DNA of 64,000 nucleotides from an uncultured Chloroflexia bacterium. GTDB lineage: Bacteria > Chloroflexota > Dehalococcoidia > DSTF01 > WHTK01. Location of the stretch: positions 416,554-480,553 of the forward strand of contig CAVYAY010000003.1 in the NCBI GenBank assembly GCA_963766645.1, read 5' to 3'. The notes under the pieces were generated by a model that saw only the letters and a list, made by a program, of their open reading frames with translations, did not search any database and had not been told where the DNA came from. Of the stretch, positions 3,683 through 57,980 are shown piece after piece (the first letter of the stretch is position 1; each line of letters starts with the position of its first letter). A program made the translations under genes and the position numbers.

Positions 3683-3699
3683 CGCGTCGATTCTAGCGC

Positions 3700-4662
3700 T
3701 CAGTTCGAAGGCGGCGCGTAGTGCCCGAACGTGCTCTCGTAGTCGCGCTGCTGCTCTCTCGGCAGAAACTCGCTCTCCAGCCGGGTGATGTCATCGTGAC
3801 TGAACGACGCGAACGTGTCGAAGCGCACGCGGCCCCATTTACTCTCGGTTGCCGCCGCGCGACGCTCGTCTAGCGCTGCCTGCCCGCTCTGCTTCAGTTC
3901 GTTCAGCAGATCCCACGTCGCCTGCAGGCCCAGCGAAGACGTCATGCCCGGGAACAGGCACGCCGCCACGCCCATATCCTCCAGGTCCTGCAGAGTCGGT
4001 GCCGGCGGCGGCCCGCCGAAGTGCGGGATCACCGCTCCCGGGATCTTCTCCGCCGCAATACGCACCTCGTCCATGGTCTGGACGTTGTTCAGCCAGATCA
4101 GGTCGACGTGTGCCTCCTCGACATACGCGATGCAGCGCTCCACCGCCTCCTGGAACGACCCGTTCTCCGCGCCGATCAGGTCGCAGCGCGCGCAGATCAC
4201 GAAGTCCGGGTCAAGCTCCTGCTTCGCTGCCATCGCCGCCTTGAATTTCCCGAGCGCTTCGGCCTGCGAGATGCATTTGCGCCCTGCACCCGTCCCGGAC
4301 CGCTTCGGGAACTCCTGGTCCTCGATATGCAGTCCCGCCGCGCCGGCTCGGATGTAGCCCCGCACCGCGTGGTACACGTTCAGCGCGTTGCCGTACCCCG
4401 TATCAGCGTCGACGAAGATCGGGATACGGCACGCCGCCGTCACGCGCTGCGTCACCTGCGTCATCTCCTCGCGGCCCATGAAGCCCACATCTGGCAGGCC
4501 GTAAACGTAAGCCGCCGTCTGCGAGCCGGCCAGGAAGAACGACTCCAGCCCAGCCTCCTGGACCATCCGCGCGGCGATCGGGCTGAACCCGCCCGGCATC
4601 AGCAGCAGCTTCTCCTCCTTCAGCAATCGCTGGAATCGAGTTGTTACCTTCTCGTTAGCCAT
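3700..4662 (-). CDS. Isocitrate lyase / PEP mutase superfamily protein (methylisocitrate lyase / carboxyvinyl-carboxyphosphonate phosphorylmutase-like)
   Basis: Motifs FVDADTGYGN and HIEDQEFPKR. Start chosen at ATG 4662 (MANEKVTTRF...), preceded by GGAGG. The upstream 99 codons of the track ORF are Arg/His/Gly-rich junk. Confidence 0.85.
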   Translation of the reverse strand: MANEKVTTRFQRLLKEEKLLLMPGGFSPIAARMVQEAGLESFFLAGSQTAAYVYGLPDVGFMGREEMTQVTQRVTAACRIPIFVDADTGYGNALNVYHAVRGYIRAGAAGLHIEDQEFPKRSGTGAGRKCISQAEALGKFKAAMAAKQELDPDFVICARCDLIGAENGSFQEAVERCIAYVEEAHVDLIWLNNVQTMDEVRIAAEKIPGAVIPHFGGPPPAPTLQDLEDMGVAACLFPGMTSSLGLQATWDLLNELKQSGQAALDERRAAATESKWGRVRFDTFASFSHDDITRLESEFLPREQQRDYESTFGHYAPPSN

Positions 4663-4691
4663 ATCTGCCTCCAAGTCCACCACGGCGGGCG

Positions 4692-5474
4692 CTAAGACTC
4701 GCGCAATACCGGGTTCCTCAGCGTCCCGATGCCCGTGATTTCGATGCTCACCGTGTCGCCGTGCTTGATGTTCTCCGGCACGCCATCCGTTCCCAGCCAC
4801 ATGATGTCGCCGGGATAGATCGTGTTGTACTTCGACACCTCGGAAATGAACGTGGCAGCCGAGAAGATCATGTCGTTCGTCTCGAAGTCCTCGACCAGCC
4901 GGTCGTTGACCCAGACCTTGGTGCGCATGCCCTCCAGCGGTACGTCCGTCACGATCCACGGCCCCATCGGCTTAAACGTGTCCGTGTTCTTGCTGCGCCA
5001 GAAAGTGCGGTCCTTGGCCTGCCACTGGCGCTCGCTGACGTCGTTGCCTATCGTCCAACCCATGACGCAGTCCAGCGCCTCTTCTTTCGACACGTTCCGC
5101 GCCCTTTTGCCGAAGACCGCCACCAGCTCGCCCTCGTACTGCACCTCCTCCGACGCGTCCTTCGGGATGACAATCGGCTCGCCGTGCGCGATCAGCGCGT
5201 TGTTGGCCCGGTACCCGATATCGGCCTGAGTCGGAAACACGGGTTCCACGCCGCGCATCGCCGCCATCCTGCGCACGTGGTCGCGGTAGTTGATCCCGGC
5301 GCAGTAGAAGTTCGAAGGCACCACAGGCACCAGCAGCTTTACCGTCGAAAAGTCATGCGTCTGGCCCGTCAGCGCGTACTCGCCAAACGGCCCGCCCTCC
5401 ACCTCCGAAACCTTCTCGCCCTCGACGATCCCGTAGCGCGGCGAACCGTCGACTTCAAATCGGCACCAGATCAT
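4692..5474 (-). CDS. Fumarylacetoacetate hydrolase (FAH) family protein
   Basis: 260-aa ORF. Shows ...GINYRDH..., YEGELVAVFGK... and GTPxG-like GTDGVPENI, a typical FAH-fold C-terminal domain. Confidence 0.85.
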   Translation of the reverse strand: MIWCRFEVDGSPRYGIVEGEKVSEVEGGPFGEYALTGQTHDFSTVKLLVPVVPSNFYCAGINYRDHVRRMAAMRGVEPVFPTQADIGYRANNALIAHGEPIVIPKDASEEVQYEGELVAVFGKRARNVSKEEALDCVMGWTIGNDVSERQWQAKDRTFWRSKNTDTFKPMGPWIVTDVPLEGMRTKVWVNDRLVEDFETNDMIFSAATFISEVSKYNTIYPGDIMWLGTDGVPENIKHGDTVSIEITGIGTLRNPVLRES

Positions 5475-5492: not shown

Positions 5493-6024
5493 CTACTCAG
5501 CCGGGCTGCTCGCCGGCGCCCCCACCGGGAATAACGACGACAGGTAAATCACGACCGCCACCTTCCCATCGTTGCGCGCCATGTGAACCATCCCCGGCGT
5601 CTCCAGCACCGCGGTTCCGGGCGTCAGGTCCACCGTCTCACCAGCTCCTACCGTCTGGCTACGCGCCGACGCCGTTCCCGAATCATGAGTCACCTGCCAC
5701 CTCGCCCTCGATCACAAAGTAAGTCAACGTCCCCTCGACGATGACTGCCTGCTGCAACCCCGGGTGCGTGTGCGGCGCTATCTCCATCCCCGCCGGGATA
5801 ATCACGCGCGTCAGCTGGAGTAGCTGACCCGCCGCGCTCGCCGGCTCCCCCTCCTCGATGACCTGGCGCGTGATTGCATCGATGCCGTCCGCCGGCTGCA
5901 ACACATCGCCGCGACCGCCATCATCGTCACCGCCGCAGGCCGCAACCAGCAGTCCCAGCGCCAAGACCGCGACAACCGTCAGACCGAAGACGCGCCCCAT
6001 CATCAACTTGCCCCTCTGTCGCAT
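5493..6024 (-). CDS. Cupin-domain lipoprotein, split by one frameshift near 5690 in this assembly
   Basis: N-terminal piece 5683..6024 has a signal peptide with lipobox (LLVAAC) and a cupin motif (PHTHPG). C-terminal piece 5493..5693 in another frame completes the barrel (...TPGMVHMARNDG...). The frame switch must lie within about 6 nt of 5690. Confidence 0.7.
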
Positions 6025-6030
6025 GACGGC

Positions 6031-6570
6031 CTACTCCTCCAGCTCGAAACGCTCCCCATTCACCGTCACCTGCAGCTCCACGGGCGTCGGCTTACGCAGC
6101 GCCGCTATCGTGAAGCAGCTCGCCTCCGCCAGCCTCACCAGCTGCTTCACGCGCTCGGGCGGCTCGTCGCTGTCCAGCGAAAGCTCCGTCGTCAGCGAGT
6201 CCGCGAAGGCCTCGATGTCACCCGCCAGCACCGACCCGGTCCGCGAATAGAGCCCGTGGACCTTGATGTTCGCGTTGCGAAACTCGATCTTTAGACCCCG
6301 TGCAACCTGCACGAGCTGAGTCGCCAGTCAAAACCCAACAGCGATCGTGAAGTAGCTCAGCGGCGAGGGCGCCGTGTCCGTACCGCCCAGGCGCGCGCCC
6401 TCGTCGCAGCGCACCGCAAACCCGCCGACGGTCCCTGTCTTGAGGTGGTCTTCGAGCAGTGTCACCTCGGCCAGAAAGTACGGCCCCTGGCGTCCGTCGT
6501 CTCGCTGCGGCATGGCGTAATCCGGGTCCCTCGGCATCGGCGCGGGGACATCGTTCCACTGATTCGTCAT
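6031..6570 (-). CDS. OsmC/Ohr-family peroxiredoxin-like protein with an in-frame TGA (6328..6330) at the peroxidatic Cys position; candidate selenocysteine protein
   Basis: Track ORFs 6328..6570 and 6031..6312 share one frame and are separated only by TGA. Joined, ...TAPSPLSYFTIAVGF-[TGA]-LATQLVQVARGL... matches the OsmC motif around the first Cys. The second Cys motif (AEASCF) is retained. Confidence 0.7.
6299..6313 (-). promoter_or_regulatory. Putative bacterial SECIS hairpin downstream of the OsmC-like TGA
   Basis: The mRNA reads UGA-CUGGCGACUCAGCU-CGUGC-AGGUU-GCACG. That is a perfect 5-bp stem, extendable by U.G and C-G pairs, with a GGU-containing apical loop about 23-27 nt from the UGA. 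It resembles E. coli fdhF GUUGC-AGGUC-UGCAC as I recall it. Confidence 0.55.
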
Positions 6571-6653
6571 GTGTGCCTCCTGACGCCGCCCAGTATAGGG
6601 TGGACTCAGCTTGGTATGATGTCGGGCGTAACGTTACGTAAACGAGGCCGCCG

Positions 6654-7466
6654 GTGACCCCGCCCAAAGCTGTCCTCATCGCCCTCATTGCCTTCGCCGC
6701 GATGTCCACCGCCGGCTACGTGACGGCCAGCTTTGCCCTGCTGGGCGCTGACGAGCCCAATACGACGCACGCCGAAAGTCGCATCTCTGTCGTCGGAAGC
6801 TCGCTGCTCGGAGCCCCGCAGCGCCAGAACCGGACGCTCCTCGAGCTCACCGCGACGGACTCGCCCACCGCAACCCTGACCGCCACCGCGGAACCGTCTG
6901 CCACGCCAACCGAGATGCCGCCCACAGCCACACCCGAATCACCGACCGAAACGCCGGAACCACCGACGCCAACCCTCGAGCCGCCCACCGCGACGCCCGT
7001 ACCTCCAACTCCAACGCCTGAACCGCCGACGCCCACGCCCGTACCTTCAACACCAACGCCTGAACCCCCGACGCCCACGCTAACTCCGTTACCGCCCACC
7101 GCTACGCCAACGCAAGTCCCGCCGCCACCTGCCGGCTCCGGTCTCGTGCTCGGCAGCATCACGCCCTACGCCGACTCCCTCGCCGGGTCGAATATGGGCT
7201 GCAGCGGCGCCGGCCCGTACGACCCCGGCGACGCCACGGTCATCGCTGTCGGGCCCCAGCACTACGACGACTGGCCCTGCGGCACGCAACTCGGCATCTG
7301 CGGCATCGACGCCAACGGCATCATCACCGGCTGCATCGTCGGCGTCCGCCAGGACTCTTGCCCCGGCTGCACTGAGAACCACCTTGACGTTTCCCGCGCC
7401 GCCTTCGAAATCATCTGCGGCCCCGCTGCCAACCGCTGCAACGTCGTAGTCACACCACTCTCGTAG
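6654..7466 (+). CDS. Secreted/anchored protein with a Pro-Thr-rich linker and a C-terminal RlpA/expansin-like double-psi beta-barrel (DPBB) domain
   Basis: N-terminal hydrophobic anchor (VLIALIAFAAMSTAGYV). Long EPPTPTP repeats. The C-terminal Cys-rich segment ...DSCPGCTENHLDVSRAAF... resembles DPBB/barwin-like domains. Confidence 0.65.
   Translation: MTPPKAVLIALIAFAAMSTAGYVTASFALLGADEPNTTHAESRISVVGSSLLGAPQRQNRTLLELTATDSPTATLTATAEPSATPTEMPPTATPESPTETPEPPTPTLEPPTATPVPPTPTPEPPTPTPVPSTPTPEPPTPTLTPLPPTATPTQVPPPPAGSGLVLGSITPYADSLAGSNMGCSGAGPYDPGDATVIAVGPQHYDDWPCGTQLGICGIDANGIITGCIVGVRQDSCPGCTENHLDVSRAAFEIICGPAANRCNVVVTPLS
6880..7130 (+). repeat. Imperfect tandem nucleotide repeats encoding the (E/V)PPTPTP linker
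   Basis: Repeating units such as acgcccgtacctccaactccaacgcctgaaccgccg / acgcccgtaccttcaacaccaacgcctgaacccccg are visible in the sequence. Confidence 0.8.
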
Positions 7467-8662: not shown

Positions 8663-10342
8663 TCACTCCATATTGGCGCCAAGGTGGACCGGTCGCGCTG
8701 TCTGCTGATACACGCCCAGGAACCCCCGCACGCCCGTCGCGCCGAACTCGCGCGGCTGCTCCCGCCGCTTCGCCAGCTCCTCCTCCGGCACCTCCAGGTC
8801 CACCGCCTTCGTTTCCACGTCGATCGAGATCATGTCGCCGTTGTCGATGAACGCCAGCGGGCCGCCCTCCGCTGCCTCGGGCGACGCCTCGCCGACCACC
8901 AGCCCGCGGTTGACCAGCCCCGACACCTGGCCCTCCGTGATCAGCGCCACGCGGTCGATCAAGTCCGCGCTGTCGAGGGCAAAGACGACCGCCGACGTGA
9001 ACGCCATCCCGGGCCCGCCGCGCACGCCGATGCCGCGCAGGACGACGACCTGTCCCGGCTTGACCTCGCCGTCGTTGATCGCAGCGACCGCTTCCTCGCG
9101 GGAGTGGTAGATGTTGGCCGGCCCGCGGAAGCGCCGCATGCGTTCGCCGGTGCCGCCCAGCCGCACGATGCCGCCGCCCGGCAAAAGCGAGCCGCGCACG
9201 ATGATGATCGTCGGCTGGTCCGACAGTGGGTCGTCCATCGGCCGCACCGGGTTGTCCGCCGCGAGGTGAACGCTGTCCAGCAGCTCGCCAATCGTCTGCC
9301 CCGAGACGCTACGAGCGATCCCCTCGATCAACGGCTCCAGCCGCTTCATCACGGTCCGCGCGCCGCCCGCCTCGTCGAGGTCTTCGATCAGGCTCTCGCC
9401 CGAGGGCCGGATCGCCATCAACAGCGGCACCCTGTCCGACAGCTCGGAGAACACGCCGTAGACGTCCGTATCCAGCTCCGCCTCCGCTGCGATCGCAGCC
9501 AGGTGCTTGATGCAGTTGATCGAGCCGCTCAGCGCCAGCGTTACGGCCGCCGCGTTGCGGATCGACTCCTCCGTGATGATGTCTCGCGGCTTCAGGTCCT
9601 CCCACACCATCTCGACGATGCGCTGGCCCGCACGACGCACCGCGTCGAACATCGCCGGGCTGTTCGCCGCCACGGGCGTGCTGCCTGGCAGCGCCATTCC
9701 CAGGGCCTCGGTCACCACGTGCATCGAGTTCGCCGTGCCCATGCCGGCGCAGACGCCCGGGCTGCAGATCGCGACGTCGGTCATCGCCGTGAGCTCCTCG
9801 ACGGTAATCCGCCCGGCCGCCACGTACGCCGCCTTGAGGAACACTTCTTCGACATCGATGTGCTGGCCGTTGTACATGCCGTGCTGCTGGTAGCCACACG
9901 CCACAACGATTGTCGGGATGTTGAGTCGCGCCGCCGCCATCATCTGGCCCGGCGCCGTCTTATCGCAGGACGCCAGGCAGATCATCCCGTCCAGCAGCGC
10001 CCCCTCGACCTGCACCTCGATATCCGCGGCGATCAGGTCACGGCTCGGCAGGATATACAGCCCGCGCTGCCCCACGCTGGTCACGAAGTCGCTCGGCGCT
10101 GCTGTCCGAACCTCGAACGGCAGCCCGCCCGCCGCCCGGATCGCCTCCTTCGCCGCCGCCGCCACGCCATCCAGGTGGCTGAAGCAGATCGCCAGTTCCG
10201 AAGACGAGTTCACGACCGCGATCTTTGGCTTCTGCATGTCCTCTTCCGACAGCCCCAACGCCCGCCACAGAGCGCGCCGTCCCGCCCATAAAGACGTCCC
10301 CGGCTCCAGGTTGCTGCGCAGCTTCCGACGCTCAGTAGTCAT
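8663..10342 (-). CDS. IlvD/Edd family dehydratase (dihydroxy-acid or sugar-acid dehydratase)
   Basis: 559-aa ORF with family features throughout (...KPKIAVVNSSSE..., CDKTAPG, ...GGPGM...). Confidence 0.9.
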   Translation of the reverse strand: MTTERRKLRSNLEPGTSLWAGRRALWRALGLSEEDMQKPKIAVVNSSSELAICFSHLDGVAAAAKEAIRAAGGLPFEVRTAAPSDFVTSVGQRGLYILPSRDLIAADIEVQVEGALLDGMICLASCDKTAPGQMMAAARLNIPTIVVACGYQQHGMYNGQHIDVEEVFLKAAYVAAGRITVEELTAMTDVAICSPGVCAGMGTANSMHVVTEALGMALPGSTPVAANSPAMFDAVRRAGQRIVEMVWEDLKPRDIITEESIRNAAAVTLALSGSINCIKHLAAIAAEAELDTDVYGVFSELSDRVPLLMAIRPSGESLIEDLDEAGGARTVMKRLEPLIEGIARSVSGQTIGELLDSVHLAADNPVRPMDDPLSDQPTIIIVRGSLLPGGGIVRLGGTGERMRRFRGPANIYHSREEAVAAINDGEVKPGQVVVLRGIGVRGGPGMAFTSAVVFALDSADLIDRVALITEGQVSGLVNRGLVVGEASPEAAEGGPLAFIDNGDMISIDVETKAVDLEVPEEELAKRREQPREFGATGVRGFLGVYQQTARPVHLGANME

Positions 10343-44358: not shown

Positions 44359-46839
<2,481 letters not shown>

Positions 46840-54248: not shown

Positions 54249-54543
54249 TTGGCCACGGCTCTACGTGATTACGAAATGGTTGTCATCCTCAGCCCCGAGA
54301 TCGGCGATGACGTTGTCGGCGAAAGCCTGGAGCGGCTCTCCCAGAACATCACCAACCGCGGCGGCGAAGTCGTGGACGTCAACCACTGGGGCCGCCGCCG
54401 CCTCGCCTACCCCATCAAGCGCCACCTCGAGGGCAACTACGTCGTCAGCCAGATCAAGCTCGACCCCGAGCCAGGTCCCGGACCTCGAGAGCAACCTCCG
54501 CATCTCGGAGGATGTCATTCGCCACCTGATCGTCAGAGACTGA
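54249..54543 (+). CDS. rpsF: 30S ribosomal protein S6, one frameshift near 54470
   Basis: LRDYEMVVILSPEIGDD...VDVNHWGRRRLAYPIKRHLEGNYVV... The tail ...VPDLESNLRISEDVIRHLIVRD-stop lies in the adjacent frame. Confidence 0.9.
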
Positions 54544-54629
54544 CGACTAGCGGCAGCTCTGCCAATCGGCAGGAACCTGTCCGTCTTCACGGCGGACCAT
54601 CTGGGTGGGTTGCGAAGAGGGGAATTGGC

Positions 54630-55049
54630 ATGCCGGACGGCCTAAACAAAGTGATGCTCATCGGCAACCTGGGCACGGACCCGGAAATGCGCTACACCGC
54701 GAACGGCAGCGCCGTCACCACCTTTCGGCTCGCCGTCAGCCGCTCCTTTGGCGGCGGTGAGAGCGGCGAACGCCGCGAAGAGACCGAATGGTTCACCGTC
54801 GTCACCTGGAACAAGCTGGCCGAGCTGCTCGGCCAGCACCTGCAAAAGGGACGCAAGGTCTACGTTGAAGGACGTCTCGCCAGCCGCAGCTGGGACGGTC
54901 CCGACGGCCAGAAGCGCTATCGCACCGAGGTCGTCGCCAACCAGGTCCTCTTCCTCGACAGGCCGCAGGGCGCAACCTTCGGCGGCGACGGCACGCCCAC
55001 CGACCCCTCCGGCGACATGGAGCTGGACGACATACCGTTTGAGAACTAG
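54630..55049 (+). CDS. ssb: Single-stranded DNA-binding protein
   Basis: MPDGLNKVMLIGNLGTDPEMRYTANGSAVTTFRLAV...TEWFTVVTWNKLAE...VYVEGRL..R.W. Acidic tail ...MELDDIPFEN. Confidence 0.9.
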   Translation: MPDGLNKVMLIGNLGTDPEMRYTANGSAVTTFRLAVSRSFGGGESGERREETEWFTVVTWNKLAELLGQHLQKGRKVYVEGRLASRSWDGPDGQKRYRTEVVANQVLFLDRPQGATFGGDGTPTDPSGDMELDDIPFEN

Positions 55050-55685: not shown

Positions 55686-56690
55686 TGCCACGGAAGGGGG
55701 GCTCCCCAGTCTGAGCCGCCTCGCACGCTCGTTCACGAACCTGCTCGCAGGCCACGAAGTCGACCCCGAAAGACGCAACGGCGTCCTGATTGTTACGGGG
55801 ATCGGCCTGGTTGTCGTGCTTGCCATGCTCCTCATCGCTTACGGCTACTACGCCGACCGCATCGCGCCCCGCGGCGACATCGTCCTCCAGGTCGGCGAAC
55901 ATCAGTACACCTACGCCTACCTCGAACAACGCATCAAGTCGGACGTTGCGCAGGGCCGCTTTAACCTCAAGGACACCGCCAACAGCCTCACCGCCACGAT
56001 AGCCCGAATCCAGCGCGAAGAACTCGACCGCATCATCGGCCGCCAGCACGGCATCACCGTCAGCGAAGCTGAGCTCGACGACGGCATCCGCGACGACCTC
56101 AACCTCGACCCGGCAATCACTCGGAACGAGCTCGCCCCTCTCCTCCGCAGTGAGCTTCGCAGGATCGACCTCCCACTCGATGATTACCTCGCCATCATCG
56201 AAACGCGGGTCATCGAGAACAAAGTGCGCGCTGAGCTCACTGCATCGCTGCCGGCGGAGGCGGAGCAGGTCAACCTCCTCTACATCGAAGGCGGTTCCCA
56301 GGCCAACACAATCCTGGCCAAGCAGGCGCTCGATGAAGGCGCCGATTTCGGCACAGTTGCAGCTCAGTTCTCCCAGGACACCAACACAAAAGCAGACGGC
56401 GTCCTCGGCTGGGTGCCCCGCGAAGCTCTCGACCCCGAGCTCGCCGACGTCGCCTTCAGCATCACCGGCCGTAGCGGCATCATCGAGACCAAGGAGGACT
56501 TCTACATCATCGAGGTCCTCGGCAAAGAGACCCGCGCAATCGACCCCTCCGTAGTGGACAACATCGGCCACGACGAGTTGACAACCTCCTCAAGACCGCC
56601 ATCGACGAGACTCCCGTCGTCTACAACCTGTCCGAGACCCAGATCGTCAACCTCGCGAACGCTGTCGGAGGCACCTTCGGTGGTGGCTAA
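55686..56690 (+). pseudogene. Membrane-anchored parvulin-type peptidyl-prolyl isomerase (SurA/PrsA-like), at least two frameshifts as assembled
   Basis: ATG 55686 gives MSEMPRKGG, then a shift in the G-run near 55705 leads into ...LPSLSRLARSF...VTGIGLVVVLAMLL (anchor). Parvulin domain ...EGADFGTVAAQFSQDTNTKADGVLGWV... The tail VDNLLKTAIDETPVVYNL...GGTFGGG-stop (56688-56690) is in another frame. Confidence 0.75.
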
Positions 56691-57980
56691 CCAGCAGCCC
56701 GTCAACGTCGCCGTGCTCGGTGCAGGCACCGTCGGCGCCGAGGTCGGCCGCGTCCTGCAAGAAAAGCGCGACGTCTACGCCCGTCAGCTCGGGCGGCCAC
56801 TCAACCTCGCTGCAGTGCTCGTCCGCGATACCTCGAAGCCCCGCAGGGGCATCGACGCGGCCCTGCTAACCACCGACGCCGCCACGGTCCTCGATGACCC
56901 TGAGATCGACATCATCGTCGAACTCCTCGGCGTCGAGCAGCCCGCCGTCGACTGGATGAAGCCAGGCGCTGCGCAACGGAAAAGCACGTCGTCACCGCTA
57001 ACAAAGAGGTCATGGCAAAGCACGGCCCGCAGCTGCTCGCCCTCGCCCGCGAGAACGGCGTCGACCTCCTGTTCGAGGCCAGCGTCGGCGGTGGCATCCC
57101 GATCATCGCCCCGCTCAAGCGCGACCTGCTGGCCAACGACATCACGCGCCGTCTCCGCCATCATCAACGGCACCACCAACTACATCCTCACCGCCATGAC
57201 CCGCGAAGGCGCCGACTTCGCCGACGCCCTCAAGCGCGCCCAGGAGCTCGGCTACGCCGAACCCGATCCCGCCAACGACGTCGAGGGCGAAGACGCGCGC
57301 TACAAGCTCGCCATCCTCGCCTCGCTCGCCTTTCGACGCCTCTGTTCAGCGCGACGACATCTACCGCGAGGGCATCACGAAGCTCACCGCCCGCGATTTC
57401 CGCTACGCCGCCGAGCTCGGCTACGCGATCAAGCTGCTCGCCCTCGCCTCCCGCATCGATGGCGGCATCCAGGCGCGCGTCCACCCCGTCTTCCTGCCCG
57501 CCGATGCCCCGCTGGCCAAGGTCGATGGCGTCCTCAACGCCGTCCAGGTCGAAGGCGACCTCATCGGCCGCGTCAACTTCCAGGGCCCCGGCGCCGGCTT
57601 CCCCACGACCAGCGCCGTCATCGCCGACGTCCTCGATGCCGCCCAGAGCGTCATCGGCGGCCGCCGCGCCAGCTACGCGACGGAAGACGCGCCAGCGCGC
57701 ATCGTCCCCATGGCGGAGCTCGTAACGCGCTACTACATCCGGATCACCGTCGTCGACCAGCCCGGCGTCCTCGCCAGCATCGCAACGCTCCTCGGCGACG
57801 CCGAAGATCAGCATCGCCTCCGTGATCCAGAAAGAAACTCACGAAGCGTCAAACACGGCCGAGTTGGTTATCATGACCCATGAAGCCCGCGAGGCATCCG
57901 TACAGCAAGCGCTGAAGGCCGTGCAGGATCTGCCCGAAGTGCAGGAAATCGGCAACTTCATTCGCGTGGAGGAACAGTGA
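56683..57980 (+). pseudogene. hom: Homoserine dehydrogenase, at least five frameshifts as assembled
   Basis: VNVAVLGAGTVGAEV..., then KHVVTANKEVMAKHG...FEASVGGGIPII..., ...INGTTNYILT...GYAEPDPANDVEGEDA..., and the ACT-like tail ...YYIRITVVDQPGVLASIA...IGNFIRVEEQ-stop. Deleting one C at 56962-56963 and one A from 56980-56983 restores DWMKQALRNGKHVVTANKEV. Confidence 0.9.

Follow-up and report, generated by a model that had tools for sequence, protein, structure and literature searches.

In the 64-kb stretch of DNA analysed here (referred to as the window), the minus-strand region 6570..6031 very probably is a gene for a 179-residue OsmC-like selenoprotein of the NF041052 family (COG1765-type), in which UGA codon 81 would be read by SelB and the product would undergo a Sec81/Cys152 redox cycle. 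Judged from sequence comparisons, selenocysteine is almost certainly what the internal TGA specifies in the active site of this OsmC-like redox protein; SelB-dependent insertion of selenocysteine at codon 81, directed by an mRNA hairpin, is strongly supported by the comparative data, and the Sec81/Cys152 redox cycle is suggested by homology.

The region 6031..6570 (minus strand) comprises a single frame of 179 codons plus a stop codon, and the sole stop between the ATG at 6570 and the TAG at 6033..6031 is the TGA at 6330..6328, which corresponds to codon 81. The minus-strand ORFs 6328..6570 (80 aa) and 6031..6312 (93 aa) lie in this same frame and are halves of one gene. The first-pass annotation, which had joined the two ORFs across a single TGA at 6328-6330 to a product of 179 residues, was correct in all coordinates, and its reading of the gene is upheld by the results below. 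The gene is complete, as indicated by full-length tblastn matches (residues 1-179) at many loci and by profile matches (see below), and its GC3 value is 0.82 both before and after the TGA. A Shine-Dalgarno-like AGGAGG motif at 6576..6581 (minus strand), read from the sequence, is located 5 nt upstream of the ATG, and GGAGG is kept in four close relatives. The hexamer TATACT at 6592..6597 (minus strand), a possible -10 element, is invariant in the window and in the related loci L002, L005 and L007; since a consensus promoter scan around the gene gave no full sigma-70 site, it is regarded only as a lead. A consensus scan for terminators around the gene found none. A 12-nt palindrome upstream of the gene was discarded as a conserved element, its palindromic form not being kept in the relatives.

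For profile scans of the joined protein, Cys was written at position 81, i.e. at the TGA codon. The NCBIfam model NF041052 (“OsmC-related (seleno)protein”) matched residues 34-172 with 148.6 bits at E=1.1e-43 (cut-off 95 bits; profile positions 6-144 of 144), and Pfam OsmC (PF02566) matched residues 63-166 with 45 bits (cut-off 27.5; E=1.5e-11; profile positions 1-99 of 100). Both matches extend across the UGA, and they support the OsmC/Ohr-type fold that had been proposed from the sequence. The Ohr model NF052637 gave a score of only 26.2 bits at a cut-off of 240, and the NCBIfam scan gave no match at E<=1 to TIGR03561 (Ohr) or to the OsmC-proper subfamily models. These scores place the protein in the NF041052/COG1765 (YhfA-like) branch, outside OsmC or Ohr proper.

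In 2005, a study of the Sargasso Sea described 15 new prokaryotic selenoprotein families, among them an “OsmC-like protein” (Zhang, Fomenko and Gladyshev; PMC1088965), which was assigned to COG1765 and listed with UxxT as its redox motif and with a predicted SECIS of the bacterial type. Analysis of the GOS data likewise lists an OsmC-like selenoprotein (pfam02566, UxxT), with 5 Sec versus 161 Cys homologues counted in the wider Pfam family (PMC2398784), and two reviews include the OsmC-like selenoprotein with its UxxT motif (PMC9312934, PMC13188914). Selenoproteins have also been reported for Chloroflexi (PMC1794560). The statement in the first-pass annotation that OsmC-like proteins are a reported selenoprotein family is thus confirmed by the two metagenomic studies (PMC1088965, PMC2398784). 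The window protein resembles this family in its HMM score, the UxxT motif, the OsmC domain and the hairpin after the UGA, and differs from it in nothing essential. It is encoded in a Dehalococcoidia-like, high-GC genome and falls within a clade found mostly in soil, unlike the original reports, which are marine. The window gene is an ordinary member of a known selenoprotein family, and its novelty is low because the family has been published since 2005 and the curated HMM NF041052 exists. Our search of the literature on the family found no biochemically characterised NF041052 member.

The TGA codon (6328..6330, minus strand), the presumptive Sec codon, opens the motif U81-L-A-T84, i.e. UxxT; position 84 is Thr in 70 of the 72 members of a family alignment and Ser in two. 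In three structure alignments, residue 81 coincides with the first Cys of the OsmC-like proteins 3cje and 2opl and of Ohr 3eer (context GLTGCVMTQ in 3cje and VGYAACFSNA in 3eer), in line with the earlier assignment of the TGA to the position of the peroxidatic Cys. Cys152 (codon 6115..6117, minus strand) in the motif AEASCF is matched by the second Cys in both 3cje (GCF) and 3eer (VCPYS) and thus occupies the resolving-Cys position of OsmC/Ohr, so that this motif is intact, as had been claimed; the column holds Cys in 69/72 members and gaps in the remaining three. Five residues (D56, E57, G63, P68 and P70) are invariant in all 72 aligned members, and the family also keeps U or C at position 81 and the nearly invariant T84, G112 and C152. 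The Asp56-Glu57 pair (codons 6400..6405, minus strand), which is present in Sec and Cys forms alike, may have a catalytic role.

The closest solved structures are those of the uncharacterised OsmC-like proteins 3cje and 2opl, of Ohr (3eer) and of OsmC (1vla). The nearest is 3cje from Jannaschia sp., which was aligned over window residues 51-165 (E=1.7e-7) and shares with the window protein the elements DEG, PPL, Cys/Sec-xxTQ and the Cys of the GCF region; it is, however, a distant relative of uncharacterised function and has Cys instead of Sec. The organic hydroperoxide reductases Ohr of Vibrio cholerae (3eer) and OsmC of Thermotoga (1vla) have the fold family in common with the window protein, and Sec81 and Cys152 match the peroxidatic and resolving Cys of 3eer, respectively. 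Unlike Ohr, the family of the window protein lacks the Glu of the NPEQLF motif and carries an N-terminal extension as well as an invariant DE motif of its own. In Ohr, this catalytic Glu is part of an Arg-Glu-Cys triad and positions the catalytic Arg; it aligns with Leu71 of the window protein, in a column that is occupied by Leu, Met, Ile or Val in 72/72 members. Because the position of the Ohr Glu is hydrophobic throughout the family, and because the scores with the Ohr models are far below the cut-offs, hydroperoxide reduction is a putative activity, and the name “peroxiredoxin” given to the protein in the first-pass annotation would express a hypothesis on the substrate, suggested by homology.

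When one-genome-per-species contigs and metagenome contigs were scanned, 78 further loci emerged, and 70 related loci cover the TGA site. All 70 carry TGA at the aligned codon, and TGC or TGT occurs in none of them. Their proteins show 40 to 92% identity. Among the loci found, two belong to Dehalococcoidia MAGs (90% protein identity) and one to a Candidatus Entotheonellaceae MAG, and the remaining ones are mostly soil metagenome contigs with 40-65% identity. The loci L002 and L005 share with the window the flanking amidohydrolase and FAH-hydrolase genes, and L002 additionally has ilvD in common with it. A word-indexed protein search retrieved only one relative, namely a C-terminal half of 98 aa, whose contig contains the same in-frame TGA at the same place.

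These data bear on the possibility that the gene is a pseudogene, in which a nonsense mutation or a base-call error changed a Cys codon (TGC or TGT) to TGA and left an inactive fragment of 80 residues. The window does contain several disrupted-looking genes (a split cupin gene, a split LeuRS gene and a fused S6/SSB gene), and Sec machinery was not seen within its 64 kb. However, these other disruptions are of the frameshift type and not substitutions, as the first-pass annotation had noted when it called them indels, and the TGA recurs at the same codon in 70/70 loci from different lineages and samples. As it is present in four close and 66 more distant relatives, it is not a base-call error, and the earlier judgement that such an error is unlikely is borne out. 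The close relatives do not show a truncation followed by decay: the part downstream of the TGA is conserved, with dN/dS values of 0.11 (L002), 0.085 (L005) and 0.18 (L007), and is thus under purifying selection. GC3 does not differ between the two sides of the TGA, and the TGA is followed by a conserved, covarying hairpin (see below). A pseudogene or sequencing artefact is effectively refuted by these comparative data, and we give it hardly any credence.

A search of protein cluster representatives (50% identity clusters) with the 98 residues after the TGA gave 185 relatives, of which the top 150 were examined. About 45 of these best 150 clusters are full-length proteins, and in all 20 full-length distant homologues that were read, position 81 is Cys. 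P0004 is such a full-length Cys form (GFCLSTQLVQVAR); the stretch around its Cys site reads AGAGFCLSTQLVQVAR. All eight full-length Cys forms that were scanned pass NF041052. Roughly 100 of the best 150 clusters, by contrast with the full-length ones, are C-terminal halves of roughly 90 aa; the 30 fragments that were read have M or V as their first residue, and in alignment coordinates the start of most fragments lies 1-13 residues past the Sec site. Gene calling on Sec forms yields just such fragments of about 90 aa, and from this proportion (about 100 of the best 150 clusters) Sec forms appear to predominate over Cys forms in the sampled clade. The 72-member alignment comprises 52 distinct Sec forms (U) and 20 Cys forms (C) at column 81. 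Given full-length Cys forms besides the TGA forms, Sec/Cys homologue pairs exist; the alignment with Cys- and Sec-containing homologues that had been suggested as a check thus gave Cys in 20/20 full-length proteins and TGA in 70/70 loci.

The fragments could also be taken at face value, the gene then coding for two peptides that assemble with each other, an N-terminal one of 80 residues that ends at the UGA and a C-terminal one of about 93 residues with its own start (the GTG at 6312); the hairpin would in this case serve translational coupling or mRNA stability. In all database copies seen, the gene is indeed annotated as two ORFs, and a GTG codon follows five codons past the TGA in the window and in close relatives. 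Such a split protein would, however, always lose exactly the catalytic residue. Moreover, the first start codon lies between 1 and 13 residues past the TGA, depending on the lineage, and these downstream starts are not preceded by any recognisable conserved ribosome-binding site, while the residues between the TGA and the starts (LATQL, including the Thr of UxxT) are strongly conserved. The Cys-form homologues, finally, are single chains. We therefore consider two separate peptides to be very improbable, and read the two ORFs annotated as “hypothetical” as one selenoprotein gene, which is a gain in annotation.

The hairpin (6297..6315, minus strand) is formed by CGUGC (6313-6309) and GCACG (6303-6299), which enclose the loop AGGUU (6308-6304), and is extended by the pairs U6314.G6298 and C6315-G6297. 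The full stem CUCGUGC/GCACGGG hence comprises seven pairs, one of them U.G, and begins 12 nt after the UGA; counting the U of the UGA as 1, the apical loop occupies nt 23-27. Position, extension and loop are as claimed in the first-pass annotation, and the helix is moreover conserved and covarying. Covariation was analysed in a gap-free alignment of 53 distinct sequences that covers the UGA with 9 nt on its 5' side and 50 nt on its 3' side. Pairing between columns 24-31 and 37-44, i.e. in a helix of eight pairs, was found in 87.7% of the cells and drops to 24-55% if the 3' strand of the helix is displaced by 1-3 columns. Changes on both sides were observed in 6/8 helix pairs, and none of 500 shuffles reached the observed covariation score.

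In most subgroups the hairpin keeps its position while its sequence changes. Stems in the same register are GUGC/GCAC in the main group and GUGU/GCAC, UUGCCCG/CGGGCAA, UUUCCCG/CGGGGAA or GUGGCC/GGCCAC in others; in the L041/L067 subgroup, GUGGGC/GCCCGC pairs one nucleotide out of register. In the main group, the stem starts 11 nt after the UGA by virtue of an extra G-C pair and carries the loop AGGU(U/G), and some subgroups have GUA or GUU triloops. The encoded peptides also differ between subgroups (LVQVAR, LVGVAR, VARYGQ, LSRYGE), so that conservation of the peptide does not account for the pairing. In sequences of the main peptide class, four-fold degenerate sites of the stem are nearly fixed (GTG for Val in 48/49 and GCA for Ala in 46/48 sequences), the latter being an A-ending codon in a genome of 65% G+C; four-fold sites just outside the stem show entropies of 0.9-1.7 bits, and the loop site 1.1 bits. 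Single-sequence folding energies were no better than those of shuffled sequences (z = -0.9, with 36/200 shuffles folding as well; z ranging from -0.9 to +0.5), so that the hairpin is supported by the comparison of sequences and not by thermodynamics. No Rfam family reached its gathering score in the 64-kb window, a result which says little about the hairpin because Rfam probably lacks a general bacterial SECIS model.

As is typical of bacterial SECIS elements, the hairpin follows soon after the UGA and has a small, G-containing apical loop. With the E. coli fdhF SECIS, whose upper stem begins 11 nt after the UGA, it shares a stem-loop 11-12 nt after the UGA and a small apical loop of the type AGGU(C/U/G) that contains the GU dinucleotide. 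The G and U of the fdhF loop take part in SelB binding. The two elements differ in that the fdhF stem contains a bulged U, whereas the window stem is a perfect helix of 7-8 bp without a bulge, and in that the fdhF loop AGGUC is located at nt 21-25 and the window loop, at nt 23-27, 2 nt further from the UGA. The fdhF apex sequence quoted in the first-pass annotation has exact matches in 5419/5426 E. coli genomes.

Genes for selenocysteine insertion were sought in the available DNA. ARAGORN found no tRNAs in the 64-kb window and no tRNA-Sec in 79 loci; Pfam scans detected no SelA, SelB or SelD domains among the approximately 50 window ORFs that were scanned, and regular expressions for SelA/SelB/SelD signature motifs had no match in the 395 kb of window and loci. 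Absence from a genome sample of 64 kb is expected by chance and is uninformative. The Dehalococcoidia-like host is a probable Sec user, and selA, selB, selC and selD are predicted elsewhere in its genome. In ten soil loci, the OsmC-like gene is adjoined by a PrdB/GrdB-like gene that likewise contains an in-frame TGA and whose product has a UxxC motif (LVPV-U-PAC) and matches Pfam GRDB with 42.9 bits at a cut-off of 22. The presence of this second TGA gene fits Sec decoding by those soil organisms, but has no direct bearing on the organism of the window.

An alternative that leaves the protein intact is read-through independent of selenocysteine, the UGA being decoded as Cys, Trp or Gly by a near-cognate tRNA or in a reassigned code. 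A UGA followed by C is a leaky termination context, and it is found in 69/70 loci; the lack of sel genes in the window would also agree with this explanation. In contrast, TGA ends 26 of the 54 called ORFs in the window and thus is not generally reassigned. The position-specific hairpin with its G-containing loop and fdhF-like spacing is a signature of SelB-dependent decoding, the family is curated as a selenoprotein family (NF041052), and the PrdB-like neighbours in related loci likewise have an in-frame UGA, in a UxxC motif. We regard Sec-independent read-through as improbable and favour selenocysteine at codon 81. Altogether, the window contains 18 sites where a TGA separates two open stretches (>=45 codons, high GC3), and the OsmC-like gene is the only one of the 18 with a flanking peptide that resembles an ordinary protein; the other 17, which were judged by eye, have flanking peptides that look off-frame.

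In the proposed mechanism, SelB carrying Sec-tRNA(Sec) would bind the mRNA hairpin 12 nt after the UGA and deliver selenocysteine to the ribosome in competition with RF2. Sec81 would then be located at the N-terminus of the helix that bears the peroxidatic Cys in OsmC/Ohr, where a hydroperoxide or another electrophile may oxidise it to the selenenic acid. Cys152 would trap this selenenic acid as a selenenylsulfide, and the 81-152 bond could be reduced back by a cellular dithiol.

This clade of NF041052 might instead consist of selenium-dependent redox proteins that act on a different substrate and are no Ohr-like peroxidases. We consider this unlikely, yet leave it open because the clade appears to have mostly Sec forms, lacks the Ohr Glu, possesses an invariant DE...UxxT...C signature of its own and, in at least ten soil loci, occurs next to a PrdB/GrdB-like gene. 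The OsmC-like and PrdB/GrdB-like proteins could form a two-selenoprotein reductase module. If so, the Dehalococcoidia copies, including that of the window, would be cases in which the OsmC-like partner was re-used by itself, in one operon with a FAH-family hydrolase. The apparently Sec-dominated soil clade and the repeated PrdB-like selenoprotein neighbour are modest points of interest of this family. A gene for a TetR-family regulator is located upstream in at least seven of at least ten of the soil loci in which the OsmC-like gene adjoins the PrdB/GrdB-like gene.

The OsmC-like selenoprotein gene adjoins a PrdB/GrdB-like gene, which contains an in-frame TGA of its own, in 10 loci from soil metagenome contigs (L045, L009, L013, L015, L026, L027, L036, L059, L068, and L071). 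In L045, the PrdB/GrdB-like gene spans positions 3692–4963 on the plus strand, with the TGA at 4187–4189, and is separated by 37 nt from the OsmC-like gene located downstream. The sequence context of the TGA, LVPV-U-PAC, corresponds to a UxxC motif, and visual inspection suggests a possible GC-rich hairpin 3' of this codon. The PrdB/GrdB-like protein scored 42.9 bits against the Pfam model GRDB (cut-off, 22) and 93.9 bits against the PrdB model TIGR04483, the latter value being below the cut-off of 300. A gene coding for a TetR-family regulator is located immediately upstream in at least seven of these loci (positions 2808–3620 in L045). The PrdB/GrdB-like and OsmC-like genes may constitute a two-selenoprotein module. 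Four loci, among them L026 (1485–2333, plus strand), contain a further ORF with the OsmC-type C-terminal motif AAEYCPVGQLF, located about 3 kb upstream of the Sec-containing OsmC-like gene. Its score against the Pfam OsmC model, 26.9 bits, is slightly below the cut-off of 27.5.

Three copies of the OsmC-like family are decayed or odd. The copy in L044 (1223–1273) carries an additional TGA in frame, together with several C-to-T differences, and in L068 (2221–2271) homology stops 24 nt past the UGA, within the SECIS-like hairpin. L006 harbors only a C-terminal remnant of 65 residues (9907–10104); this remnant and an intact Sec copy on L003 belong to the same MAG.

In the window, the OsmC-like gene is immediately followed by a small lipoprotein-like cupin gene (5493–6024, minus strand), which is broken by a frameshift near 5683–5693 into pieces of 113 and 66 amino acids. 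The entire cupin segment of about 550 bp is missing in the close relatives L002, L005, L007, and L008, where a gene of the FAH-family hydrolases starts 6–30 nt after the OsmC-like stop codon. On the other side, an 83-nt intergenic region separates the OsmC-like gene from a divergent gene (6654–7466, plus strand) whose product is rich in Pro and Thr and has a hydrophobic segment at the N terminus and a C-terminal domain rich in Cys. The protein has no Pfam match; its Cys-rich domain is kept in L002 and L005. The intergenic region contains a perfect 12-nt palindrome, CGTAACGTTACG (6627–6638), which as such is not conserved in the four relatives compared; its left half together with the flank (CTCGTTTACGTAACG) is invariant in all four.

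Several other genes of the window, in the regions 44359–46532, 54249–55049, and 55816–57825, are apparently disrupted or fused by indels. Leucyl-tRNA synthetase is divided into at least two separate ORFs. Single ORFs combine ribosomal protein S6 with SSB domains, and PPIase with homoserine dehydrogenase domains. These observations are consistent with the first-pass annotation, which had described the other disruptions as indels rather than nonsense substitutions, and the pattern fits indel errors of a long-read assembly.
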